A DNA stretch of 64,000 nt from Promethearchaeota archaeon (GTDB lineage Archaea; Asgardarchaeota; Lokiarchaeia; Sigyniarchaeales; SOKP01): the NCBI GenBank assembly GCA_019058445.1, contig JAHPZA010000009.1, forward strand, positions 32,001 to 96,000, written 5' to 3'. The notes under the pieces are model-generated. The model saw only the letters and a program-made list of their open reading frames with translations, was not told the origin of the DNA and did no database searches. The position numbers were made by a program, and so were the translations under genes. Positions 19,575-53,172 of this stretch are shown here, one piece after another. Numbering within the stretch: the first letter of the stretch is position 1; each line of letters begins with the position of its first letter.

Positions 19575-22500
19575 ATGAAAAACAAAAAAATTATTCTATT
19601 GTTTTTTATAGTGTGTATGAATTTCTCTATGCTAATTGTAGCAACTAATAAACCAATTAAACAGAGTAATAACACTCCAGGTACTTTAAAAACATCTCAA
19701 ACAGAAGCAGGAGGAAAAGTCTTCACCACTAGACAAGAGACATTTTATAATTGTTACATCAATAATAAACAGCCAGCGCTAAATAACTTACCAAAAATAA
19801 ATATTCCTAATTATATTCTTTCAAGTGCATCAATGAATTTTGAGGAAATTTTAGCTCATAATTTCACTTACGAACTGGAACCAGAATATACAGCGGCTTT
19901 TAAAACCAGTTCTTATACAGAACCTACTTATGTATATCAAAAATTCTGGGTTGAACGAAGTCAATATATTAATAATGTCAGCATTTATATATTAGATGAA
20001 ATAAATGAAAATGATTATAATGAGCAAAATTCATGGGAAGTTGCTATATTGAATTGCTCAAATGACTTATATGGAACACCGAATGAAACAATACAATCAC
20101 CATTAGTAATACCTCATCCCCGGAATGCAATTCCTCACTGGGAACTTTTTGACTTTTTAAATTCTGAAATAGGATCTATCTTTTTAGATAAAGATAACAC
20201 AAACTTTACAATAGAAAATGGATTCATTAAATACTGGTTCGCACTAAGAATAAAAATACCTCCTAATGATTTTTGGCAAGGAGGTGGGGAAAAATATCTT
20301 TTCTTCAATCCAGATGGCGATGATCCCACTGATATTGGAGAGGGTGCAACTTTCGCCAGAGGTCAGTTTGGCTATGGTTCTCACCGTAAAGCTTATTCTC
20401 ATACTAATGTAAGTGCGATTAATGTTATAAATGGCACTAAAAAAAGCGGTGGAATCCCTTCTTTCGCATTTATGGATAATGACAGATTTTTAGCTCAATC
20501 AAATTCTAATAATTTAACATTAAACGCCACACTTGATTTTAGTTTTGGAGATGATTGGTTGTTCTGGTTTATCAAAGAAAGGCTTCCCAGTGTATGGGAT
20601 ACTGAATATAAACCCATATTTGGATTGGAATGGGAAGAATTCTGGAATCTATTGCATCCTTATCTACTATTTGGATTTGACTTTAATATCGTAACAAACA
20701 TAAGCGACTTTAGTGATATACTTACTGCTGATATATTTCTATTCAATTCAACGGATAATACATGGATGAATGTATCCCAGTATATGAATGTTAAACAAGA
20801 AGATGAAACATTAATTACTGTCAATGTTAGAGACCGTGAAGGGAAAGATGATATCTTGTCATTAATGGGGGATGGGATGGCCTACCCAGCGCCAAATGAA
20901 CATCGGAATTATAATCTTACTGTTAAATTTAACTATACAAGTAATGGTGCTGTTTTTAACGTATCATTTGATGAATTCACTATAGATGTTCTTACTTTAT
21001 ATGAAATTTCTGATCTTCAGATATTTGATCCCGGTATAAAAGATTTATTTTATCCCATTAAAGCAACGGTAGACCCGACTACTGGAAGCACATTAGAAAA
21101 TTATAATTTAGATGTATTAGAATTAAATGATGGTAATTATTTTATAGCAAATTCTATAGATGATAATCTTACAATTGAATTTGAATTTAACTTAGTTCCC
21201 TATTTGAACAGTTCATTATGGAATATGGACCAATATGAATATCAATATGTTTACCCAAATCCCACGATCCCTGAAATGACTTTGCGTCTTAGTTCTAAGG
21301 TAAGTATAAAGGGAAACTCTTCAGTGCAAAATAATCTAACTACTGCTCTGTTAGAAGTTTATGTACCCGAAGAAATGGATTGGTTTCCAATTTGGGGAGA
21401 AAATTTATTAGCTCATGAGGAAGAGTTTCAAATACCTGCTTGGATAAATGTTACAAGCTCTTTATTTATTCTACAAATGATAAATTCTTCGGCTCAAAAA
21501 AATTCACTTAAATTTCGGTTAAGATATGAATGGAATGATGCTCAAACACCCCCTCCCGGAGGTTTTAATGTTACCATTGATGAGTTTAGTTTCGATATCA
21601 CCGTTCAAAATGCTAGGTCTTCAGATTTCGCTACGATGATTGGTTACGGGTATAATAATACTTCAGTAAAGCCCCCTGATATTTCCATGAAAGTTCAGGG
21701 CACAAGTGTGGCAAATGATAGTACATGGAGTGGTGCCATTGCTAATGGTAGTCCCTCTTTGGACGGGAATTTTGAATTTAATATAACATCCCGATGGGAG
21801 GCTGTTAGTTTTAATGTGACTATTTCATATACCATTTATAAATACATTATTGACCTAGATTTTAAGAAAAGTATAAAATCTCAGTATATGACAGGAACGA
21901 ATTATTTTACAGTTGAAGTAACAGATGATAATGGTAATGAACTGGAAGATATCGAATTACTTTTCGAACTTTTGGATAGCGATGATAAAGTTGTAGATGA
22001 GGATACTGCTATTACAAATGAGGATGGCGAAGCTAAGGGGTCATTAGATTTTGATGAAGTGGGAGATGGATATAAGATTAAAGTCAGTTTTGAAGAAGAT
22101 AGTATCTATGCTGAAGAGGATATAGAGTCGGACGAATTCAGAATAGTAGATGAAACAACCTTGTTTATTGATAATGTTCTATTTTTTCTGCCATATATAT
22201 TAATCGCTGTTGCCGGGATTACTATATTTGCCACAGTTAGGCATCATAGAATGAATAAATTACGCAGGTTCTGGGCAGGAGAGGCACTTACTTTGGATGA
22301 TTTACTTAAAATTAGTTACCTTTTAATAATACATAAAGACGCAGGGGTGACAATATATAATAAGCAGGTTTCAATGGAACTTGATTCTGATTTGATCGGT
22401 GGATTTCTCACAGCAATTTCTCAATTCAGGAGTGAGCTTAAGAAAGATTCAATTCCTAAATCCGCAGATCAAGGGATTGAAATGGATTATTATGATTTTA

Positions 22501-22931
22501 AAATAGTTATAACTGATGGAAATTATGTCAGAGTTGCTTTAATTCTGGATGGTATACCTTCAGAGAGACTAAATGAGAGTCAATGGGAATTTACTCGAAG
22601 ATTTGAAATGAAACATCAAGCAAGTTTAAAAGATTTTACTGGTGATATTAGAACATTCAAAGAAACTGATGATTTAGTAGATCAGATTTTCAATATTAGA
22701 TTAATGTATCCTTTACAGTTAGCAAAACATTGGGAATTTACAAAACTTACCAAACTAGAAAAAGCTCTTGTTGAAGTGGGATTAGAGATGCAAAAAGAAA
22801 GAAACTTTATTTTTACCTCAAGTCTATTGAGTTATGGATTAGCGGGTCGCAAAGAATCAAGAGATCAAATCATAAGTACGATTCTAGATCTTAAACGTAG
22901 AGGAATACTTATTCCAATGGAAATAGAATAA
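19575..22931 (+). CDS. Single-pass membrane protein: large ectodomain + TM + cytoplasmic longin-like and winged-helix-like domains
   Basis: Signal peptide; beta-rich ectodomain with many NxS/T; Ig-like 'VTDDNG...TNEDGEA'; TM ~22180-22240; tail 'LLIIHKDAGVTIY...LIGGFLTAISQFRSEL...VRVALIL'. Confidence 0.7.
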   Translation: MKNKKIILLFFIVCMNFSMLIVATNKPIKQSNNTPGTLKTSQTEAGGKVFTTRQETFYNCYINNKQPALNNLPKINIPNYILSSASMNFEEILAHNFTYELEPEYTAAFKTSSYTEPTYVYQKFWVERSQYINNVSIYILDEINENDYNEQNSWEVAILNCSNDLYGTPNETIQSPLVIPHPRNAIPHWELFDFLNSEIGSIFLDKDNTNFTIENGFIKYWFALRIKIPPNDFWQGGGEKYLFFNPDGDDPTDIGEGATFARGQFGYGSHRKAYSHTNVSAINVINGTKKSGGIPSFAFMDNDRFLAQSNSNNLTLNATLDFSFGDDWLFWFIKERLPSVWDTEYKPIFGLEWEEFWNLLHPYLLFGFDFNIVTNISDFSDILTADIFLFNSTDNTWMNVSQYMNVKQEDETLITVNVRDREGKDDILSLMGDGMAYPAPNEHRNYNLTVKFNYTSNGAVFNVSFDEFTIDVLTLYEISDLQIFDPGIKDLFYPIKATVDPTTGSTLENYNLDVLELNDGNYFIANSIDDNLTIEFEFNLVPYLNSSLWNMDQYEYQYVYPNPTIPEMTLRLSSKVSIKGNSSVQNNLTTALLEVYVPEEMDWFPIWGENLLAHEEEFQIPAWINVTSSLFILQMINSSAQKNSLKFRLRYEWNDAQTPPPGGFNVTIDEFSFDITVQNARSSDFATMIGYGYNNTSVKPPDISMKVQGTSVANDSTWSGAIANGSPSLDGNFEFNITSRWEAVSFNVTISYTIYKYIIDLDFKKSIKSQYMTGTNYFTVEVTDDNGNELEDIELLFELLDSDDKVVDEDTAITNEDGEAKGSLDFDEVGDGYKIKVSFEEDSIYAEEDIESDEFRIVDETTLFIDNVLFFLPYILIAVAGITIFATVRHHRMNKLRRFWAGEALTLDDLLKISYLLIIHKDAGVTIYNKQVSMELDSDLIGGFLTAISQFRSELKKDSIPKSADQGIEMDYYDFKIVITDGNYVRVALILDGIPSERLNESQWEFTRRFEMKHQASLKDFTGDIRTFKETDDLVDQIFNIRLMYPLQLAKHWEFTKLTKLEKALVEVGLEMQKERNFIFTSSLLSYGLAGRKESRDQIISTILDLKRRGILIPMEIE

Positions 22932-25889: not shown

Positions 25890-26702
25890 ATGTCAAATGA
25901 GAAGAAAAAATTCATAACCATTGGTCAAATTGATGCTACTGGAGTGAGAGGTCCTCATGAAAAGGAATTAAAGGATATTAGCAACAATAAATATGCTATG
26001 TTTATCAAGATAAATGAAGAACAGTTAAAAAATATCGTACAAAATGACCTTGGGGCGAAAATTGAAAATATCGGATTTAATGAAGATTGGACAATATCTA
26101 TCGAGATGTTTCCTGAAGTTAATATTCATATGTCCTATTCTTATTTTGGTGATGAATTTGGAGATGATATCGAAGCTGAATTTAAATTTTACTTTTCTGG
26201 TGAAAGAGTATATTGGGTTCCCGGAGAAGATTCTGCAACATTCATCGATATTATAATGGATTTTATGGAAGAGCGAAGTAAAAATAAAGCTCCCTTTCAA
26301 AAAGAATATACTAAGAAAACAGATTTAATGAAAAAGGTTTTAATACAAAGAGAAAAACCATTCAACCTTTTAAAGGCAGACGATAAAAATAAATTAACCT
26401 CCTTTTTAGGAGCCAAAGTATGGAAAACAGATGAGGGTTGGAGAATTAAAAAAGAAGTTTTTCCAAAAATCTTTATTGAAATAACATGGAATAGCAAAAA
26501 TGGCTTAGATATTGCATTTTCAGGAGAAAATCTAGAAAATATTAGTAGCTATCATATCGAATTTGTTGGGATTTTTATCATTAATCACATACTCCGATAT
26601 ATAACCGTAAATAACCAAGATAAGGATTTACCAGATATTTGTTATATGATGTTCTCAAGATTATACACTAAAGAGAAGGGTTGGGAACACAGAACACGAT
26701 AA
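25890..26702 (+). CDS. Hypothetical protein with two internal repeats (DUF3786-like)
   Basis: Repeat 'LGAK....W.I..E.FP...I....(x)..FSGE' occurs twice; resemblance to DUF3786 is by eye only. Confidence 0.5.
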   Translation: MSNEKKKFITIGQIDATGVRGPHEKELKDISNNKYAMFIKINEEQLKNIVQNDLGAKIENIGFNEDWTISIEMFPEVNIHMSYSYFGDEFGDDIEAEFKFYFSGERVYWVPGEDSATFIDIIMDFMEERSKNKAPFQKEYTKKTDLMKKVLIQREKPFNLLKADDKNKLTSFLGAKVWKTDEGWRIKKEVFPKIFIEITWNSKNGLDIAFSGENLENISSYHIEFVGIFIINHILRYITVNNQDKDLPDICYMMFSRLYTKEKGWEHRTR

Positions 26703-26730
26703 AAAAATTATAAATTAAATTTAAAAAAAC

Positions 26731-27297
26731 CTATACAGTTGTCCATATTACAGCTCTTCCTTTTTTCTTATCTGACCTTTTAATTTTTTGTGAAGCCTCA
26801 AGATCGGACATTAGTTTCCAAACTTGAGAATTACTTAATTTAAAATACTTTCTCAAATCTGGAGTTGACATCTCAGTTCCATTTAATAAATTTAGAATTA
26901 ACCGTTTAATCTCTTCCACCGTATCCTCATCAGATTCTGAAGCATCATCATCATTGTTTTCTTCCTCCTCTGGTTCTTCCATTTCCAACATAATTCGTGA
27001 AGCTATACTGTTAAGTTGTTTAATGTTATTTTCTATACCTTGAGGTTTCATAAATAAACAGCATAATTCTAAATCTTTCGGAAAGGCTACGATGTAAAAT
27101 TTATCATATAATATTGCTCTAGGTTTTTTACCAGCGTTTCCTCCACGAAATGCAAGATAGAAATTCATTGCAAAATCATCCAAATTTACTACACCTTTAG
27201 ATGCTTCAAAATTCTTTTTCCATTTAAGAAAAGGACCGTCAATCATATCAAATCCTATTAATGCAGCTCCAAATAATTCCTTTTCACTAAAATTCAG
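26731..27297 (-). CDS. Putative uDENN/longin-like protein with C-terminal winged helix (CTG start proposed; ORF track starts at 27246)
   Basis: In-frame upstream extension CTG-N-F-S-E-K-E-L-F-G-A-A-L-I-G-F-D joins M-I-D-G-P, giving 'FD-x3-GP'; acidic linker; HTH-like 'MSTPDLRKYFKLSNSQVWKLMSDLE'. Confidence 0.6.
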   Translation of the reverse strand: MNFSEKELFGAALIGFDMIDGPFLKWKKNFEASKGVVNLDDFAMNFYLAFRGGNAGKKPRAILYDKFYIVAFPKDLELCCLFMKPQGIENNIKQLNSIASRIMLEMEEPEEEENNDDDASESDEDTVEEIKRLILNLLNGTEMSTPDLRKYFKLSNSQVWKLMSDLEASQKIKRSDKKKGRAVIWTTV

Positions 27298-27298
27298 T

Positions 27299-27826
27299 TT
27301 ATTTTAACCCCCTTCTGATTAAAGTTTGATTTAATTCTTTTTCAATTATTTGAATTAATGATTTTTTTTCTGTAGGATTTATTGCAGTAAGACCGTAAGT
27401 TTTTACATGAAGTAAATCCTCAATCAGTTTAGGATCCATTCTACTTACATCATTCATACATAAATCTTGTTTATTCGCAATCCCTATAATAGGGCACTCC
27501 TCATCTACAATCTTTTTGGCCAGCTCAATTAATTTTTTTGAATTTAAGACATTTCGAGGAGTAGAATCTGTTACAATAAAAACGAGGTCAGAACCTTCAA
27601 GATAATCTTCAAGATATTTTAGATATGCTTTTTGTCCACCAAAATCCCAAACTTTTAGGTTATAATTATTTAATCTTATGGACTCCAGATCAAATCCTTG
27701 AGTAGGAATGTATAATGGGTCAATGGTATCATTTCTAGTTAATAATTTCAGCATTGTTGTCTTTCCTACAGCAGGATGTCCCATGATCGAAATTTTTGCC
27801 AATGTATTAAATGTAGAACTTACCAT
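27299..27826 (-). CDS. Small Ras-superfamily GTPase (Arf/Rag-like Asgard type)
   Basis: G1 GHPAVGKT, G2 PTQG, G3 WDFGGQ, G4 NKQD, G5-like LTA. Confidence 0.92.
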   Translation of the reverse strand: MVSSTFNTLAKISIMGHPAVGKTTMLKLLTRNDTIDPLYIPTQGFDLESIRLNNYNLKVWDFGGQKAYLKYLEDYLEGSDLVFIVTDSTPRNVLNSKKLIELAKKIVDEECPIIGIANKQDLCMNDVSRMDPKLIEDLLHVKTYGLTAINPTEKKSLIQIIEKELNQTLIRRGLK

Positions 27827-27935: not shown

Positions 27936-29867
27936 TTAAAATATTCCAGTTATAGGAATATTATAATAAAATGATAATAAAATAAGCGAGAAAAATGTTG
28001 GAACAATTAGACTAAAAGTCAATAATCTTTGGGACACTCTTAAGCACTCTTGTAGCGTATCAATGATTGTATTAAAATAGATTGGATTTCCCCATATTCT
28101 AACATCATTCACTGTTGAATTATAGTAGAAAAATTCAACCGGTTCTAAGTTTTTTTCTGCTTCTTGAATTAATTTGTCTAGCTTCTCAATAATAAAATCT
28201 AGTTTTATTTTATCTCCTAAAGGTGAATACCCTCTACTAGTGAATTGTCGCGCTACGGTATGTGAGTCTGAGGTTGTGATTTCACCTTTTTCAATTCCCC
28301 GGTTTTGTAGCATATTTAGGATATATGATCGAATATCAACATATGCGTTATTTGCATCGAAATGAATTAAAGCGGTTTTTTGATTAGTTTCAATATTTTT
28401 AAAAATGTGAACCACAATCCCACCATACCCAATACCATCAGTTTCAGAAAACCGTTCCATAGGATCATTTGCAACTCCATATAATAATGGAATAGGAGAG
28501 CTTGACTGCCTTTTTTTGCTTGTTAAATACTTCTCTGAAACGTTAATGAATTCCTTTCCCTCTAAAGATTTTTTAATAATTAAAACTTCATCTCCTATTA
28601 TTGAGTTATGAGAATCAATAATCAATACTTCATTAAATTTGTTCCATTGAGCAATTTTTCTTATCTTCTTACCAATATCGGATTGTATATCATCTGAGGG
28701 AAGGGGATGTCTTGTTAAAAACATAATAGGTACATTATCTATTTCCATCCCTAAAACTTTTGAATTATTGGATATTTTTCTGGAAAAATCTTTCACTTTT
28801 TTTATCCATAGTAGATTCTTATCATTTTTTATCCTTTTGATATCAGAATTAATCTGATTTAAAATTTTATTTTCCTCATTCTGAGTAGTTAGATTTTGTG
28901 TATGATCGGTTGTGGTATGATAGACAGTTGTTCCAGGAATACTTTCTCTAAACGATCTATAGATTAATTCCGGTAAATCACTAGAACCACATGTTTTAAA
29001 TGGTCCGAAATGAACGTGAGGAACAATAAATAATCCTTTTAATTTTTTTGTCTCGTCATTTCTTATTGCTAAATATTGTATTTTTACACTGGAATTTACT
29101 CCAACTGTATCAAATATTTGTTCTATTTTATCATCATGACCACTTGTCATCATAGAAAGTACAAATGCTCGAATAAACGGATATCCTCCCAAATCTCCAC
29201 CTGTTGCGTCTCTATATGTTCTACTTACATGAAATAAACCTCTTGCGTAAAAGATAGTGAATATAAAAGCACATGTCCCGAAAAAAATCATAGCTCTAAT
29301 AAAAAATGTTAAGGATAATTGAGCTGTATATATACTGTAAAGGATAATACTTGAAACCGGTTGTATTAACGCTAAAATGAAGTGGCCGTACTTTCCTACC
29401 GTTGTAAATGAAAAATAAATAACAAAAGCTAAAATATAGGAAATAATTATACCTAACATAAAAAATACTTCACGAAAAGTGTGGTTTCGGAAATATAGTG
29501 CTAATAACTGTCCAACTAAAAAACTTCCCCCTATAATTGAATTAAAAATAGCATTCATTTGAATTGACCATCCTCTTGGTGGAGAAGCTAAAACAGGCGC
29601 TTTTTTTGAATATATTAATGCAACAATCACACCAATCAATGATGTAATCATAAAAATAATAAAGATCTGCAAAAAGTAATTAAAAAGCATGTTAATACAG
29701 ATTATGTTAAAACATCGCTCATAAATAGCATGAAATATTGTTGATAATAATGCAATTAAAAAAGGCAAACCAAATAAAGCAGTATAAGCGAGGAATCTGG
29801 AAGAAAATAATTCAACATAAGAAAATATTCCAGGTGCTTTTCGAGATGGTTGCTTCTGAACAAACAT
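27936..29867 (-). CDS. DUF2070 family membrane protein
   Basis: N-terminal TM bundle; 'PHVHFGPF..CGSS.LP', 'IIDSHN', 'FDANN', 'TSDSH'; C-terminal TM. Confidence 0.85.
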   Translation of the reverse strand: MFVQKQPSRKAPGIFSYVELFSSRFLAYTALFGLPFLIALLSTIFHAIYERCFNIICINMLFNYFLQIFIIFMITSLIGVIVALIYSKKAPVLASPPRGWSIQMNAIFNSIIGGSFLVGQLLALYFRNHTFREVFFMLGIIISYILAFVIYFSFTTVGKYGHFILALIQPVSSIILYSIYTAQLSLTFFIRAMIFFGTCAFIFTIFYARGLFHVSRTYRDATGGDLGGYPFIRAFVLSMMTSGHDDKIEQIFDTVGVNSSVKIQYLAIRNDETKKLKGLFIVPHVHFGPFKTCGSSDLPELIYRSFRESIPGTTVYHTTTDHTQNLTTQNEENKILNQINSDIKRIKNDKNLLWIKKVKDFSRKISNNSKVLGMEIDNVPIMFLTRHPLPSDDIQSDIGKKIRKIAQWNKFNEVLIIDSHNSIIGDEVLIIKKSLEGKEFINVSEKYLTSKKRQSSSPIPLLYGVANDPMERFSETDGIGYGGIVVHIFKNIETNQKTALIHFDANNAYVDIRSYILNMLQNRGIEKGEITTSDSHTVARQFTSRGYSPLGDKIKLDFIIEKLDKLIQEAEKNLEPVEFFYYNSTVNDVRIWGNPIYFNTIIDTLQECLRVSQRLLTFSLIVPTFFSLILLSFYYNIPITGIF

Positions 29868-50979: not shown

Positions 50980-53172
50980 TTAAGTCATAAGAGAAATCTC
51001 TTTAGGAATAAAGGGAACAATTATTTTCAATTCTATTAACGATTCTATAGCATTTATTACTAAATCTTTATTTTGTTCGCTGACTATGTTAAGTACAGTT
51101 TCTAATTCAAACTTATTTTTATCTTTTGAAATTGAAATAATATTATTAATCACACGAGTTTCCAATTTAGTAAACTTTCTTTCTTTTGATAGTCTCATTA
51201 AATCAAATGTTTTTTGGTTTATTTCAAAAAATTCCTTATAATATAATTCATAGTGGTTATTTACAAATGAAGCAATAAGCTCTTCAAATTCATCAAGTAT
51301 CCCCTTCCAATTTTTTATTTGTTTCGCAAATTGGAGAAATAATTTTGATATAAACAATGCTGTATGATTTTTTAATCTTTCAGATGCTCTCTCATTAAGA
51401 ATTAGGACAACCCTTATCTCTTCTCTTTCCATAATCAAGCATATAAAATGTCTAAAGTCTAATTCATTTAATTTTTCAATGCCAAACTCCTCCTTTAATT
51501 CTATTAAACCATTCTTTTCTATAGATCTTCGGGTAATCTCTTCGCTTATAGTCATGATAGCTTGAATAAAACCTGAAAACATTACTTCCTCCTCCCCTTC
51601 TAAGAATGTATAATTTTTAAAATACATTAAATTCCCGCCCTCCCTATGACTTATTACAATTGCTTGGATATTTTTAATATCTTTATATTTCTGTGTTCTT
51701 TGTAGTAAATATCGCTCCATTTTTCTTTTTCTTGGGGCTAAATAATATGTTCTCAGGCTTATAACTCCTAAAACCCCACTTACAGCAAATAATATACTTA
51801 AGATTATCCAATTAAGCCCTGATTCTTGTATGATTTTATTTGAATCTCCATTTTCATCTGATTCAGGAGTAATTATGACATATGATATATAAAGATAAAC
51901 CTCATCAATCGAAATGTTAATATTCTGATCTAAATGAAATTCATCTGCAATAAAAACTTGAATCGATAAGTTCACAGAGTCTGTAGGAGGTGAAAGATAT
52001 AAATTTATTTCATTAAAGGTGGTGTTAATTTGGCTTAGTTTAATGGTTATTGGATGAAATTGACCATTTAAATGAATTCTAATCTCTGAATTTATAGATA
52101 AAGTGGTTTTGGTCCAATTTTGACTAATTTTATATTTAAAATTTAAGTGTGCTTCTGTACTTAAAACTTTGTAATTTTCAGAACTGAGTTTATTAAGTTC
52201 ATCTCCATTTTGATTCCAGGAAACAGTCGTTAATTGATTAATCTTTTTCTCATAAGTAAAAGTGAAATTCAGATAATTAATTATTAAATCATTAAAAGTA
52301 TCTTCATCAATTCCTGTTGCACTATTATCTTCCGTAAATAATTTCATTCCTAATGTTACAGTAAAATTACAGTGGTCTGTACTTAAAACTGAAGAAAGAT
52401 AAAAGATCAGAACTTCTTGAGGAACAGTTATCATATATGTATCTGATAAAATATCCGTGCCAGGAGGGTTACCCCTGCCTAATTCTTCTGTTTGAAAATA
52501 AGCAATTTCATACACTTTATTTTTTTCCAAATCTGAAACTAAAACGTAAAATCTGACATAATCTCCAACAACATAACTATTCATATAAGTTGTAGGCCAT
52601 CCAGATTTAGCCAAGGTATCTCCAGATCGATCAAGATTTTCATCTACCGAGGCATTAACTCTAGCTTGAATGGATGCAGAAGTGATAATAAAATCTGAAA
52701 TATCAACAGGCATGCTAATATTTTTGTCCCAATGAACACTTGGATTTTGATTGGCTGTCATATCATCGTAAGTATGACGAACCCAACATCCTTCAGAAGT
52801 AATTTCATGATATTGAGTTTTATTTGGAAAATTAGGATTATTTACTTCTGTCCAATTTGAAGCGGTAGGAGGATCTGCAATTAATGAAAAAGTTTTTTTT
52901 TCTCCCAACACCTCGAAATTTGCTACACCCTCTCTAATTGAAGCATTAACATCTTTTTTATCCCCACTAATAGATTTTTTCCATGATGTTTGAGAACTAA
53001 AATCAGAATTGTTTAACCATTGCCTCTTCCCACTTATTTGACCTGAACTGTGGGGAACTTTTTGGCTATATACATCGATCGAGGTTATCATAGTTCCTAC
53101 ATAAACAAAGTGATAATGAAATGTAAAAATAATAAATAATACTATTAAGCCCAGATTTCTCTTATATTTCAA
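50980..53172 (-). CDS. Single-pass membrane protein: beta-rich ectodomain + TM + cytoplasmic longin-like and winged-helix-like domains
   Basis: N-terminal signal anchor; TM 'WIILSILFAVSGVLGVISL'; tail 'IVISHREGGNLMY...MFSGFIQAIMTISEEI...IRVVLIL...ASERL' aligns by eye with the tail of 19575-22931. Confidence 0.7.
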   Translation of the reverse strand: MKYKRNLGLIVLFIIFTFHYHFVYVGTMITSIDVYSQKVPHSSGQISGKRQWLNNSDFSSQTSWKKSISGDKKDVNASIREGVANFEVLGEKKTFSLIADPPTASNWTEVNNPNFPNKTQYHEITSEGCWVRHTYDDMTANQNPSVHWDKNISMPVDISDFIITSASIQARVNASVDENLDRSGDTLAKSGWPTTYMNSYVVGDYVRFYVLVSDLEKNKVYEIAYFQTEELGRGNPPGTDILSDTYMITVPQEVLIFYLSSVLSTDHCNFTVTLGMKLFTEDNSATGIDEDTFNDLIINYLNFTFTYEKKINQLTTVSWNQNGDELNKLSSENYKVLSTEAHLNFKYKISQNWTKTTLSINSEIRIHLNGQFHPITIKLSQINTTFNEINLYLSPPTDSVNLSIQVFIADEFHLDQNINISIDEVYLYISYVIITPESDENGDSNKIIQESGLNWIILSILFAVSGVLGVISLRTYYLAPRKRKMERYLLQRTQKYKDIKNIQAIVISHREGGNLMYFKNYTFLEGEEEVMFSGFIQAIMTISEEITRRSIEKNGLIELKEEFGIEKLNELDFRHFICLIMEREEIRVVLILNERASERLKNHTALFISKLFLQFAKQIKNWKGILDEFEELIASFVNNHYELYYKEFFEINQKTFDLMRLSKERKFTKLETRVINNIISISKDKNKFELETVLNIVSEQNKDLVINAIESLIELKIIVPFIPKEISLMT

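Follow-up and report, generated by a model that had tools for sequence, protein, structure and literature searches.

A conserved gene pair of an Arf-like GTPase and a longin-winged-helix protein in Lokiarchaeia-type Asgard archaea, with CTG at the start position in one strain

The stretch of DNA analysed here, referred to as the window, comprises 64,000 nucleotides (nt) with 30% GC and lies on contig C9 of a 4.6-Mb genome, for which the database names of close protein relatives indicate a placement in the Lokiarchaeia/Promethearchaeota. On its minus strand, a gene for a small Arf-like GTPase is followed after a single base by a gene for a protein of 188 amino acids (aa) with a predicted longin-type domain, an acidic linker and a winged helix-turn-helix (wHTH), in the following called the longin-wHTH protein (P0001). 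This pair, the start codon of its second gene and the possible relation of the longin domain to eukaryotic GTPase regulators are the subject of this work. The locus comprises the following features (window coordinates):

27826..27299, minus strand: open reading frame (ORF) of the GTPase, 175 aa, with the 3' end ...AGA AGG GGG TTA AAA TAA and the stop codon TAA at 27301-27299
27308..27313, minus strand: Shine-Dalgarno-like AGGGGG in the 3'-terminal part of the GTPase gene, at a distance of 10 nt from CTG
27298, minus strand: junction base A, followed by CTG at 27297-27295, 1 nt past the GTPase stop TAA
26731..27297, minus strand: longin-wHTH gene, 188 aa including the start codon, with the stop codon TAG at 26731-26733
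27247..27297, minus strand: 17-codon N-terminal extension encoding β1 (residues 8-17) and the invariant F16 and D17
26701..26729, minus strand: two T7 runs straight after the stop codon, as read from the sequence and with an inferred function
26702: end of a convergent gene, next to the 3' end of the longin-wHTH gene

The listed ORF of 171 aa starts at the ATG at 27246, and CTG is located 51 nt (17 codons) upstream of it in the same frame. Upstream of CTG, the frame is closed by a TAA at 27306-27304, which is the third codon before CTG, and no ATG, GTG or TTG is found in the minus-strand sequence of the 17-codon extension. The G-run at 27312-27308 ends 10 nt ahead of CTG, and the 3' end of the 16S rRNA in this genome, ...GGATCACCTCCT, pairs with AGGGGG through one G·U. 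The junction was thus described correctly in the initial annotation, which had noted the in-frame CTG 1 nt past the GTPase stop, the G-run about 10 nt away and the in-frame stop three codons upstream. The extension reads LNFSEKELFGAALIGFD, followed by M18-IDGPFLKW, and the string quoted in that annotation corresponds to the last part of it. The two T7 runs behind the longin-wHTH stop are inferred to be an archaeal terminator-like signal.

A search of the protein database with the 188-aa form yielded 482 matches, of which 120 were listed; these 120 showed lengths of 180-190 aa and covered 96-100% of the query. The N-termini of the orthologs read MNFSEKELFGAALIGFD..., or begin with V or L where the source retained the literal start codon. 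At the DNA level, the codon aligned to CTG was determined for 20 loci of the window's family, as had been proposed as a check, and is ATG in nine, TTG in six and GTG in four of them, while CTG occurs in this genome only. The first position of the start codon therefore comprises all four bases, and the second (T) and third (G) are invariant. The usage of start codons shifts by lineage, since nine of ten order-level relatives start with ATG, compared to nine of 20 in the window's family, where TTG, GTG and CTG are used instead. In the loci of the orthologs, a Shine-Dalgarno sequence (AGGAGG or GGAGG) precedes this position at the same 10-nt spacing.

The conservation of the extension upstream of MIDGP, on which the proposed gene model depended, was clearly observable. 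Across the family loci, codons 2-17 vary at 8, 5 and 15 of the 16 first, second and third positions, respectively, while F3, E7, A12, L13, G15, F16 and D17 show no amino-acid change. Judged from these alignments, the extension is under purifying selection. Furthermore, Met18 is replaced by Leu in five of the 20 loci, and consequently it cannot be the start of the family. Altogether, the 188-aa form proposed from CTG is shown to be the form of the family, with ATG, GTG or TTG exactly at this position in the orthologs, β1, F16 and D17 inside the extension and CTG at the start position in this strain. The start of the listed 171-aa ORF at 27246 lies behind β1 and F16-D17; with a CTG start, standard gene callers that accept ATG, GTG and TTG would drop β1 and half of the diagnostic motif described below, as had been anticipated.

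Since the difference to the relatives comprises one base only, the C at 27297 could also be an assembly or sequencing error that conceals a GTG, TTG or ATG. However, CTG is unchanged in the contig of the probable source sample, which has a depth of 25x, and was also found in an independently assembled contig (3.4x) of a second sample from the same study, with no variant listed. The contig of a related strain (run X4) ends at 27300 and lies outside this comparison. The presence of CTG in contigs from two samples argues against an assembly slip, and an error of this kind is considered very improbable.

More weight has to be given to a start-loss in this strain. In this case, a recent mutation to CTG would have abolished or nearly abolished initiation, and the strain would carry a weakened or dying version of a module that remains functional in the relatives. 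The cell would then produce little or none of the protein, or else start at Met18 and make a 171-aa form without β1, which would probably be misfolded. CTG is restricted to this genome among the 20 loci and is absent from the 120 listed database proteins, the nearest relatives start with GTG or ATG, and CTG was reportedly a weak start in the E. coli measurements of Hecht from 2017. PMC10666635 cites Hecht 2017 for ATT only. On the other hand, the ORF is intact, every family-invariant residue is kept in the window copy with I159V as the one unusual change, and the Shine-Dalgarno sequence as well as the 1-nt spacing between stop and start are preserved. Moreover, the same CTG was assembled in both samples, and weak starts are already tolerated in the family, with TTG or GTG in ten of the 20 loci. 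A start-loss is therefore regarded as unlikely, including the lack or misfolding of the product that it would entail.

The initial annotation had interpreted the two genes as a pair, and this is borne out by their order in the relatives. The GTPase gene is located directly upstream of the longin gene in all 20 family loci and in all ten order-level loci (43-63% identity), which makes them adjacent in 30 of 30 loci of the order. Among four distant database relatives, the GTPase was found upstream in three, while the contig of the fourth is cut. Ten loci were sampled from other Asgard families, and of the five closest relatives in this sample, four carry the GTPase upstream; one of these four paired loci encodes a longin-only form of 131 aa. 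Another distant paired relative carries a different, non-wHTH domain at the C-terminus. Judging from gene order, it is thereby shown that the GTPase-longin pair is a conserved unit of Lokiarchaeia-type Asgard archaea, across the order and beyond. The longin-wHTH gene is single-copy in this genome, and it was detected in 38 of 41 relatives as well as 51 of 54 family genomes. Within the family, the longin-wHTH protein is better conserved than the neighbouring proteins, with an identity of 70-88% compared to 55-87% for the GTPase, and it is annotated as hypothetical everywhere.

The distance from the GTPase stop to the longin start ranges from -14 to +22 nt across 33 loci and is mostly -4 or -11, compared to +1 in the window. 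Huber et al. (PMC10666635) measured archaeal termination-reinitiation at stop-start distances of about -8 to +10 nt on one transcript and described an enrichment of such pairs for subunits of heteromeric complexes, which was 8-fold in H. volcanii and 4.5-fold in E. coli. As far as the geometry of the junction is concerned, the distance fits a translationally coupled pair. Relative to the GTPase, the second gene is read in the +1 frame, which is open from 27303, and this genome also encodes a longin-GTPase fusion (P0154), so that a programmed +1 frameshift or read-through at AAA-TAA-A could be considered, by which the GTPase would be fused to the longin-wHTH protein as in other Asgard longin-GTPase fusions. 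Yet the genes of the relatives overlap by 4-14 nt with a separate Shine-Dalgarno sequence and start, the junction sequence is not conserved, and no longer, fused relatives of the N-terminal domain were found in the search, although the latter is weak evidence. A fusion by frameshift is thus extremely improbable.

Ahead of the GTPase gene, most loci comprise 98-190 nt of non-coding DNA. In the window, the next gene upstream encodes a DUF2070 membrane protein (27936-29867, minus strand, Pfam 2.9e-83), which is co-oriented and located 110 nt from the GTPase gene. DUF2070 is found at this place in some genera and proteins with seven transmembrane helices (7-TM) or other proteins in others. Downstream, the convergent gene (25890-26702, plus strand) encodes a 270-aa protein with 55-82% identity and no Pfam family, and it was found beside the pair in 17 of the 20 family-level loci examined. 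These neighbours and an RsmB-like methyltransferase are kept within the family only. A three-gene module was considered and rejected due to the variation of the upstream neighbours, which comprise DUF2070, 7-TM proteins on either strand and soluble proteins.

For the GTPase, the assignment to the Arf type is based on Pfam Arf (2.8e-19, 69.7 bits at a cut-off of 22.3) and on the best sequence matches in the PDB, which are all Arl3, Arl1, Arl2 or Arf1, down to 8e-18. The sequence comprises G1 as GHPAVGKT, G2 with T42, G3 as WDFGGQ with the catalytic Q65, G4 as NKQD and G5 as LTA; GxPAVGKT, T42, WDFGGQ, NKQD and LTA are conserved across 28-30 orthologs. About ten residues (MVSSTFNTLA) precede β1, and neither an N-terminal amphipathic helix nor Gly2 nor a lipidation motif was observed in the sequence. 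Since the amphipathic helix and Gly2 are missing, the protein is described as Arf-like in its core but not as a canonical Arf.

The structure of the longin-wHTH protein was predicted with AlphaFold2 using an alignment of 23-28 sequences, which resulted in a confidence (pLDDT) of 77-79. According to the model, the protein is composed of the following parts:

26977..27276, minus strand: longin-type domain, residues 8-107, with the order ββαβββα (AlphaFold2)
27232..27252, minus strand: FDMIDGP motif (F16 D17 ... G21 P22) at the β1-β2 turn
26932..26976, minus strand: acidic low-complexity linker, residues 108-122, EEPEEEENNDDDASE..., with a pLDDT below 50
26734..26931, minus strand: wHTH, residues 123-188

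In the longin-type domain, the model shows β1 at residues 8-17, β2 at 21-29, α1 at 39-51, β3 at 61-63, β4 at 68-74, β5 at 77-83 and α2 from 88 or 92 to 107. β1 lies wholly inside the 17-codon extension and is preceded by just three helical residues, i.e. by no N-terminal helix of the roadblock type, while the second C-terminal helix (α3) of longin domains is not evident in this model. No family of Pfam or NCBIfam was found for the first 110 residues. The structural neighbours of this domain in Foldseek and VIA are all GTPase-associated members of the longin/roadblock superfamily, with VIA Z scores of 9.6/8.2 for TRAPP 7e2c (106 aa, 3.6 Å), 9.2 for Mon1-Ccz1 (5ldd_D), 8.8 for ζ-COP, 8.2 for LAMTORs/LC7, 7.1-7.8 for NPRL chains and 7.6 for MglB. 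Further neighbours are DENND1B (3tw8_C, uDENN) and DENND11. Z values of this size are moderate, and every Foldseek match of the domain has an E-value above 1e-3.

The linker differs in length and sequence among the orthologs and is acidic in all of them. In the C-terminal domain, helices were predicted at 123-138, 145-149 and 156-168 and strands at 172-179 and 182-187. The comparison with solved wHTH domains showed VIA Z scores of 9-10 at a root-mean-square deviation of 1.5-2.6 Å over 61-64 residues, and a profile search of the PDB matched MarR/ArsR-type regulators. Relatives pass the Pfam cut-offs for HTH_DeoR (31.7 bits) and HTH_11 (27.4 bits, P0131); the wHTH of the window copy lies below the cut-off, with FaeA at 17.2 compared to 20.7. 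One Foldseek alignment to the GATOR1 chain 9o5a_C extends across both domains (192 columns, E 3.6e-3). The acidic linker and C-terminal wHTH had been said to recall the layout of NPRL2/3, in which an N-terminal longin is combined with C-terminal winged helices (Levine 2013, PMC3747258), and the support for the wHTH sustains this likeness of layout.

Across 28 sequences of the family, down to 28% identity, F16, D17, G21, P22, Y47, F50, G53 and P59 are invariant, with G21-P22 located at the start of β2 in the model. C9orf72 (W33-D34...G38-P39), SMCR8, FLCN and NPRL2 have in common a Gly-Pro (GP) motif in the loop or at the beginning of β2, which is absent from the longins of TRAPP, adaptins and DENND proteins and has been described as specific to longins that act as GTPase-activating proteins (GAPs) (PMC12290439, 2025). 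The same work places the GP turn at the catalytic pocket of these GAP longins and reports the GP motif for some Asgard longins, leaving their partner GTPases open. By its motif, the longin domain in the window is possibly of the GAP-longin type and closest to C9orf72, which shows WDxxxGP and no arginine finger. The initial annotation had gone further and read the hydrophobic strand with F-x4-GP as the N-terminal signature of longin/uDENN domains in NPRL2, C9orf72, SMCR8 and FLCN. The predicted longin fold and the GP motif with an aromatic residue at -5 stand, while a specific homology to NPRL2, FLCN, SMCR8, C9orf72 or uDENN was not supported. Motif and layout together point to a GTPase-binding longin, possibly of the GAP type and closest to the finger-less C9orf72, and not to membership in the NPR2 or Folliculin families.

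The structural neighbours would also agree with a role as guanine nucleotide exchange factor (GEF), as known for the longins of Mon1-Ccz1, TRAPP and DENN proteins, or with a Ragulator-like anchor. TRAPP (7e2c), Mon1-Ccz1 (5ldd_D), DENND1B (3tw8_C) and the LAMTORs are among the best of them, and most longins serve as GEF platforms (PMC3747258). However, the structural ranks are tied within about 1 Z unit, and the GP motif, as mentioned, is missing in the longins of TRAPP, adaptins and DENND proteins. A GEF or anchor instead of a GAP is therefore rather improbable.

Altogether, it is assumed with a probability of about 60% that the GTPase and the longin-wHTH protein form a cognate complex, an assumption drawn from gene order, motif and predicted fold. 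The two genes would be co-transcribed, in line with the non-coding DNA ahead of the GTPase gene in most loci and the T-runs after the second gene. Ribosomes finishing the GTPase would reinitiate at the NTG one to few bases away, assisted by the Shine-Dalgarno sequence inside the R-R-G/R codons of the GTPase, and the second gene would here be translated from CTG with an efficiency that is probably below that of the ATG-bearing relatives. Weak starts are frequent (TTG or GTG in half of the family loci and CTG in this strain), which suggests that the cell produces less of the regulator than of the GTPase. In the complex, the longin domain may serve as the cognate platform for the GTPase, bind it at the switch regions and sense or control which nucleotide state it is in, and the wHTH may relay this state to DNA or to another partner. 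A prediction of the complex from alignments of the GTPase and the longin N-terminal domain, with GTP and Mg, resulted in scores of 0.27 and 0.30 compared to a mark of 0.32, which weighs neither for nor against it.

Within such a complex, a GAP-type regulator and an effector with a GTPase-switched wHTH are given roughly equal weight, and they are not exclusive. A pure effector, in which the longin domain would sense the GTP-bound GTPase and the wHTH would bind DNA without any GAP or GEF activity, is more doubtful. The DeoR/HTH_11/MarR-ArsR type of the wHTH is typical of DNA-binding regulators, the family shows no invariant arginine finger, and the prokaryotic analogues are pairs of the MglA/MglB type and the Streptomyces conservon CvnB/CvnC/CvnD. 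In addition, longin-only relatives in two other Asgard families adjoin a gene for a PF0610-like wHTH with a Zn-ribbon. In contrast, proteins are the binding partners of the wHTHs in the eukaryotic relatives (NPRL2/3, ESCRT-II, cullins). The two genes also stay together in loci in which the wHTH is lacking or exchanged for another domain, so that the core function is independent of it. Furthermore, the FDxxxGP turn, which is invariant, is the element found at the catalytic pocket of GAP longins.

The variation at the C-terminus is seen in several relatives. Two proteins with 21-26% identity, P0144 and P0148 (loci L033 and L034), keep the longin domain, and their wHTH is swapped for an unrelated domain of about 70 aa ('...IKGLGPKR...') that matches no Pfam family; an Arf-like GTPase is located upstream in L034, while the contig of L033 is cut. 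A label as helix-hairpin-helix, given to this domain by eye, was dropped as it found no support in Pfam. The PF0610-like wHTH and Zn-ribbon genes beside longin-only relatives (L040:2419-2766, plus strand, and L046:1032-1400, minus strand, both from other Asgard families) score 46-54 bits in Pfam. PF0610-like_N showed weak matches in three members of the fused family, and a scan of this genome with its hidden Markov model (HMM) gave no match at the longin-wHTH protein. The wHTH may thus be encoded either fused to the longin domain or as a separate gene.

Several points weigh against a cognate complex with a GAP-like longin that is translated from CTG. In tested systems, initiation from CTG is poor, and this codon is unique among about 150 sequences inspected. 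Remoter longin-only homologues from other Asgard families (E 1e-14 to 1e-19) are not located beside this GTPase. Neither the window protein nor 23 family members matched Pfam NPR2 (PF06218) or Folliculin (PF11704), and a scan of the whole genome with both HMMs found matches at other loci and none at the longin-wHTH locus. An hhalign comparison with three FLCN-like longins of the same genome aligned only the 7-residue motif and was not significant; with a 16-sequence profile built for one of these longins, the probability was 0.1 and only FDmiGP and YDiLGP were aligned. With Z scores of 7-9, the structural comparison fails to tell GAP longins apart from roadblock, TRAPP and adaptor longins. Finally, the alignment of the longin-wHTH family comprises no invariant Arg column: R51 is invariant among close orthologs only and replaced by K, Q, N, M or L in distant ones, and R60 varies as R, K, L, Q or M. 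For comparison, KYDxxLGP and an A-R-G finger are both invariant in the FLCN-like family of the same genome. A feature search in the ESM Atlas gave a best cluster at 0.79-0.80, in which 19% of the members carry NPR2; as this score lies below the level of shuffled sequences, it can only be taken as a lead.

The near-threshold matches of the Folliculin HMM in this genome fall on three other proteins. P0154 (L036:636-1901; contig C3 of G000, about 122435-123700, plus strand) is the longin-GTPase fusion mentioned above, and its ORF exceeds the fetched stretch. It comprises an N-terminal FLCN-like longin ('SIFDDEGP', 'ENARGN'; Pfam Folliculin 19.8 bits, below the cut-off), a Rag/Arf-like GTPase (Gtr1_RagA 3.1e-25) and a roadblock-like tail, an architecture that is known in Asgard archaea. 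P0153 and P0155 (L037:217-855 and L035:602-1441, both minus strand; contig C10 of G000) are stand-alone FLCN-like longins with the GP motif and 'ARGG'. The family of P0153 comprises 307 database relatives, all annotated as hypothetical and just under the Pfam Folliculin cut-off. Moreover, the window encodes two receptor-like proteins (19575-22931, plus strand, and 50980-53172, minus strand), the tails of which were called longin and winged helix in another note; the comparison of these tails with the longin-wHTH family by hhalign was not significant.

Roadblock or longin proteins next to a GTPase, Asgard longins with the GP motif and NPRL2-like longins are known, the latter from Liu et al. (bioRxiv 10.1101/2020.10.19.343400). 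The longin-wHTH family fixed behind an Arf-like GTPase appears to be new, as we found no description of an FDxxxGP longin fused to a wHTH downstream of one Arf-like GTPase in a literature search. In the most far-reaching reading of the pair, an Arf-family GTPase would be the direct target of a longin that bears the GP motif and is wired via a winged helix to DNA, which would amount to transcription controlled by a small GTPase in Asgard archaea. The start codon, as ATG, GTG, TTG or CTG, would then be an evolutionary dial for the stoichiometry of regulator and GTPase. It is a speculative and unlikely extension of the assumed cognate complex that the pair represents a minimal archaeal forerunner or analogue of C9orf72-SMCR8, FLCN and GATOR1 with the wHTH directed to DNA and such a dial in place. 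The longin-wHTH family is of interest for work on the origin of eukaryotic GTPase regulation.

In prokaryotes, operons of roadblock/LC7 proteins and small GTPases are represented by MglA-MglB, and the Streptomyces conservon comprises the roadblock protein CvnB, the HTH-containing CvnC and the GTPase CvnD. As in MglA-MglB, a small GTPase gene is located in the window beside a regulator of the roadblock/longin superfamily, and MglB is itself a structural neighbour (Z 7.6). The differences are the longin topology without N-terminal helix and the Arf-like GTPase with its catalytic Gln, which is not of the MglA kind. The addition of an HTH-containing protein to the set of GTPase and regulator is shared with the conservon, but regulator and HTH are fused here in one chain.

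Among the eukaryotic systems, an N-terminal longin whose β1-β2 turn bears the GP motif is shared by C9orf72-SMCR8, which acts on Arf, and by FLCN-FNIP and GATOR1 NPRL2-NPRL3, which act on Rag. In comparison with W33-D34...G38-P39 of C9orf72, the aromatic residue at -5 and the Asp at -4 are retained, and the spacing of FDxxxGP is identical to that of WDxxxGP. Likewise, the presumed client is an Arf/Rag-type GTPase whose switch II reads WDxGGQ, and the combination of the longin with a C-terminal winged helix resembles NPRL2/3. In contrast to the eukaryotic longin GAPs, the longin-wHTH protein comprises 188 aa with one wHTH and neither a DENN core nor TINI/INT regions, shows no invariant arginine finger and no detectable sequence homology, and its gene shares an operon with that of the presumed client. 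It is probably a homodimer or a monomer, whereas the eukaryotic proteins form heterodimers of paralogous longins. The GP motif is also shared with the Asgard longins of the FLCN/SMCR8 type (PMC12290439). However, the Asgard longins described with this motif carry an arginine finger, which the longin-wHTH family does not, and they lack the fused wHTH and the fixed neighbouring GTPase.

Asgard genomes encode dozens of small GTPases as well as dozens of longin and roadblock proteins. As stated by Tran et al. (2024, PMC10933270), the GTPase genes of MK-D1 generally do not share operons with genes for roadblock or longin proteins, and therefore regulators cannot be matched to GTPases from the genome layout. 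The GTPase-longin pair is an exception, and as a nearly universal, single-copy and presumably coupled pair in Lokiarchaeia-type genomes it offers one concrete match of GTPase and longin to test. Since both proteins are small and appear soluble, they lend themselves to binding, GAP/GEF and structural work. The closest parallel within the Asgard archaea is given by the longin-GTPase and GTPase-roadblock fusions (PMC10933270; P0154), in which a longin is likewise linked with an Arf/Rag-like GTPase. While this link is physical in the fusions, the GTPase and the longin-wHTH protein are encoded by separate genes that would be linked by the coupling of their translation.

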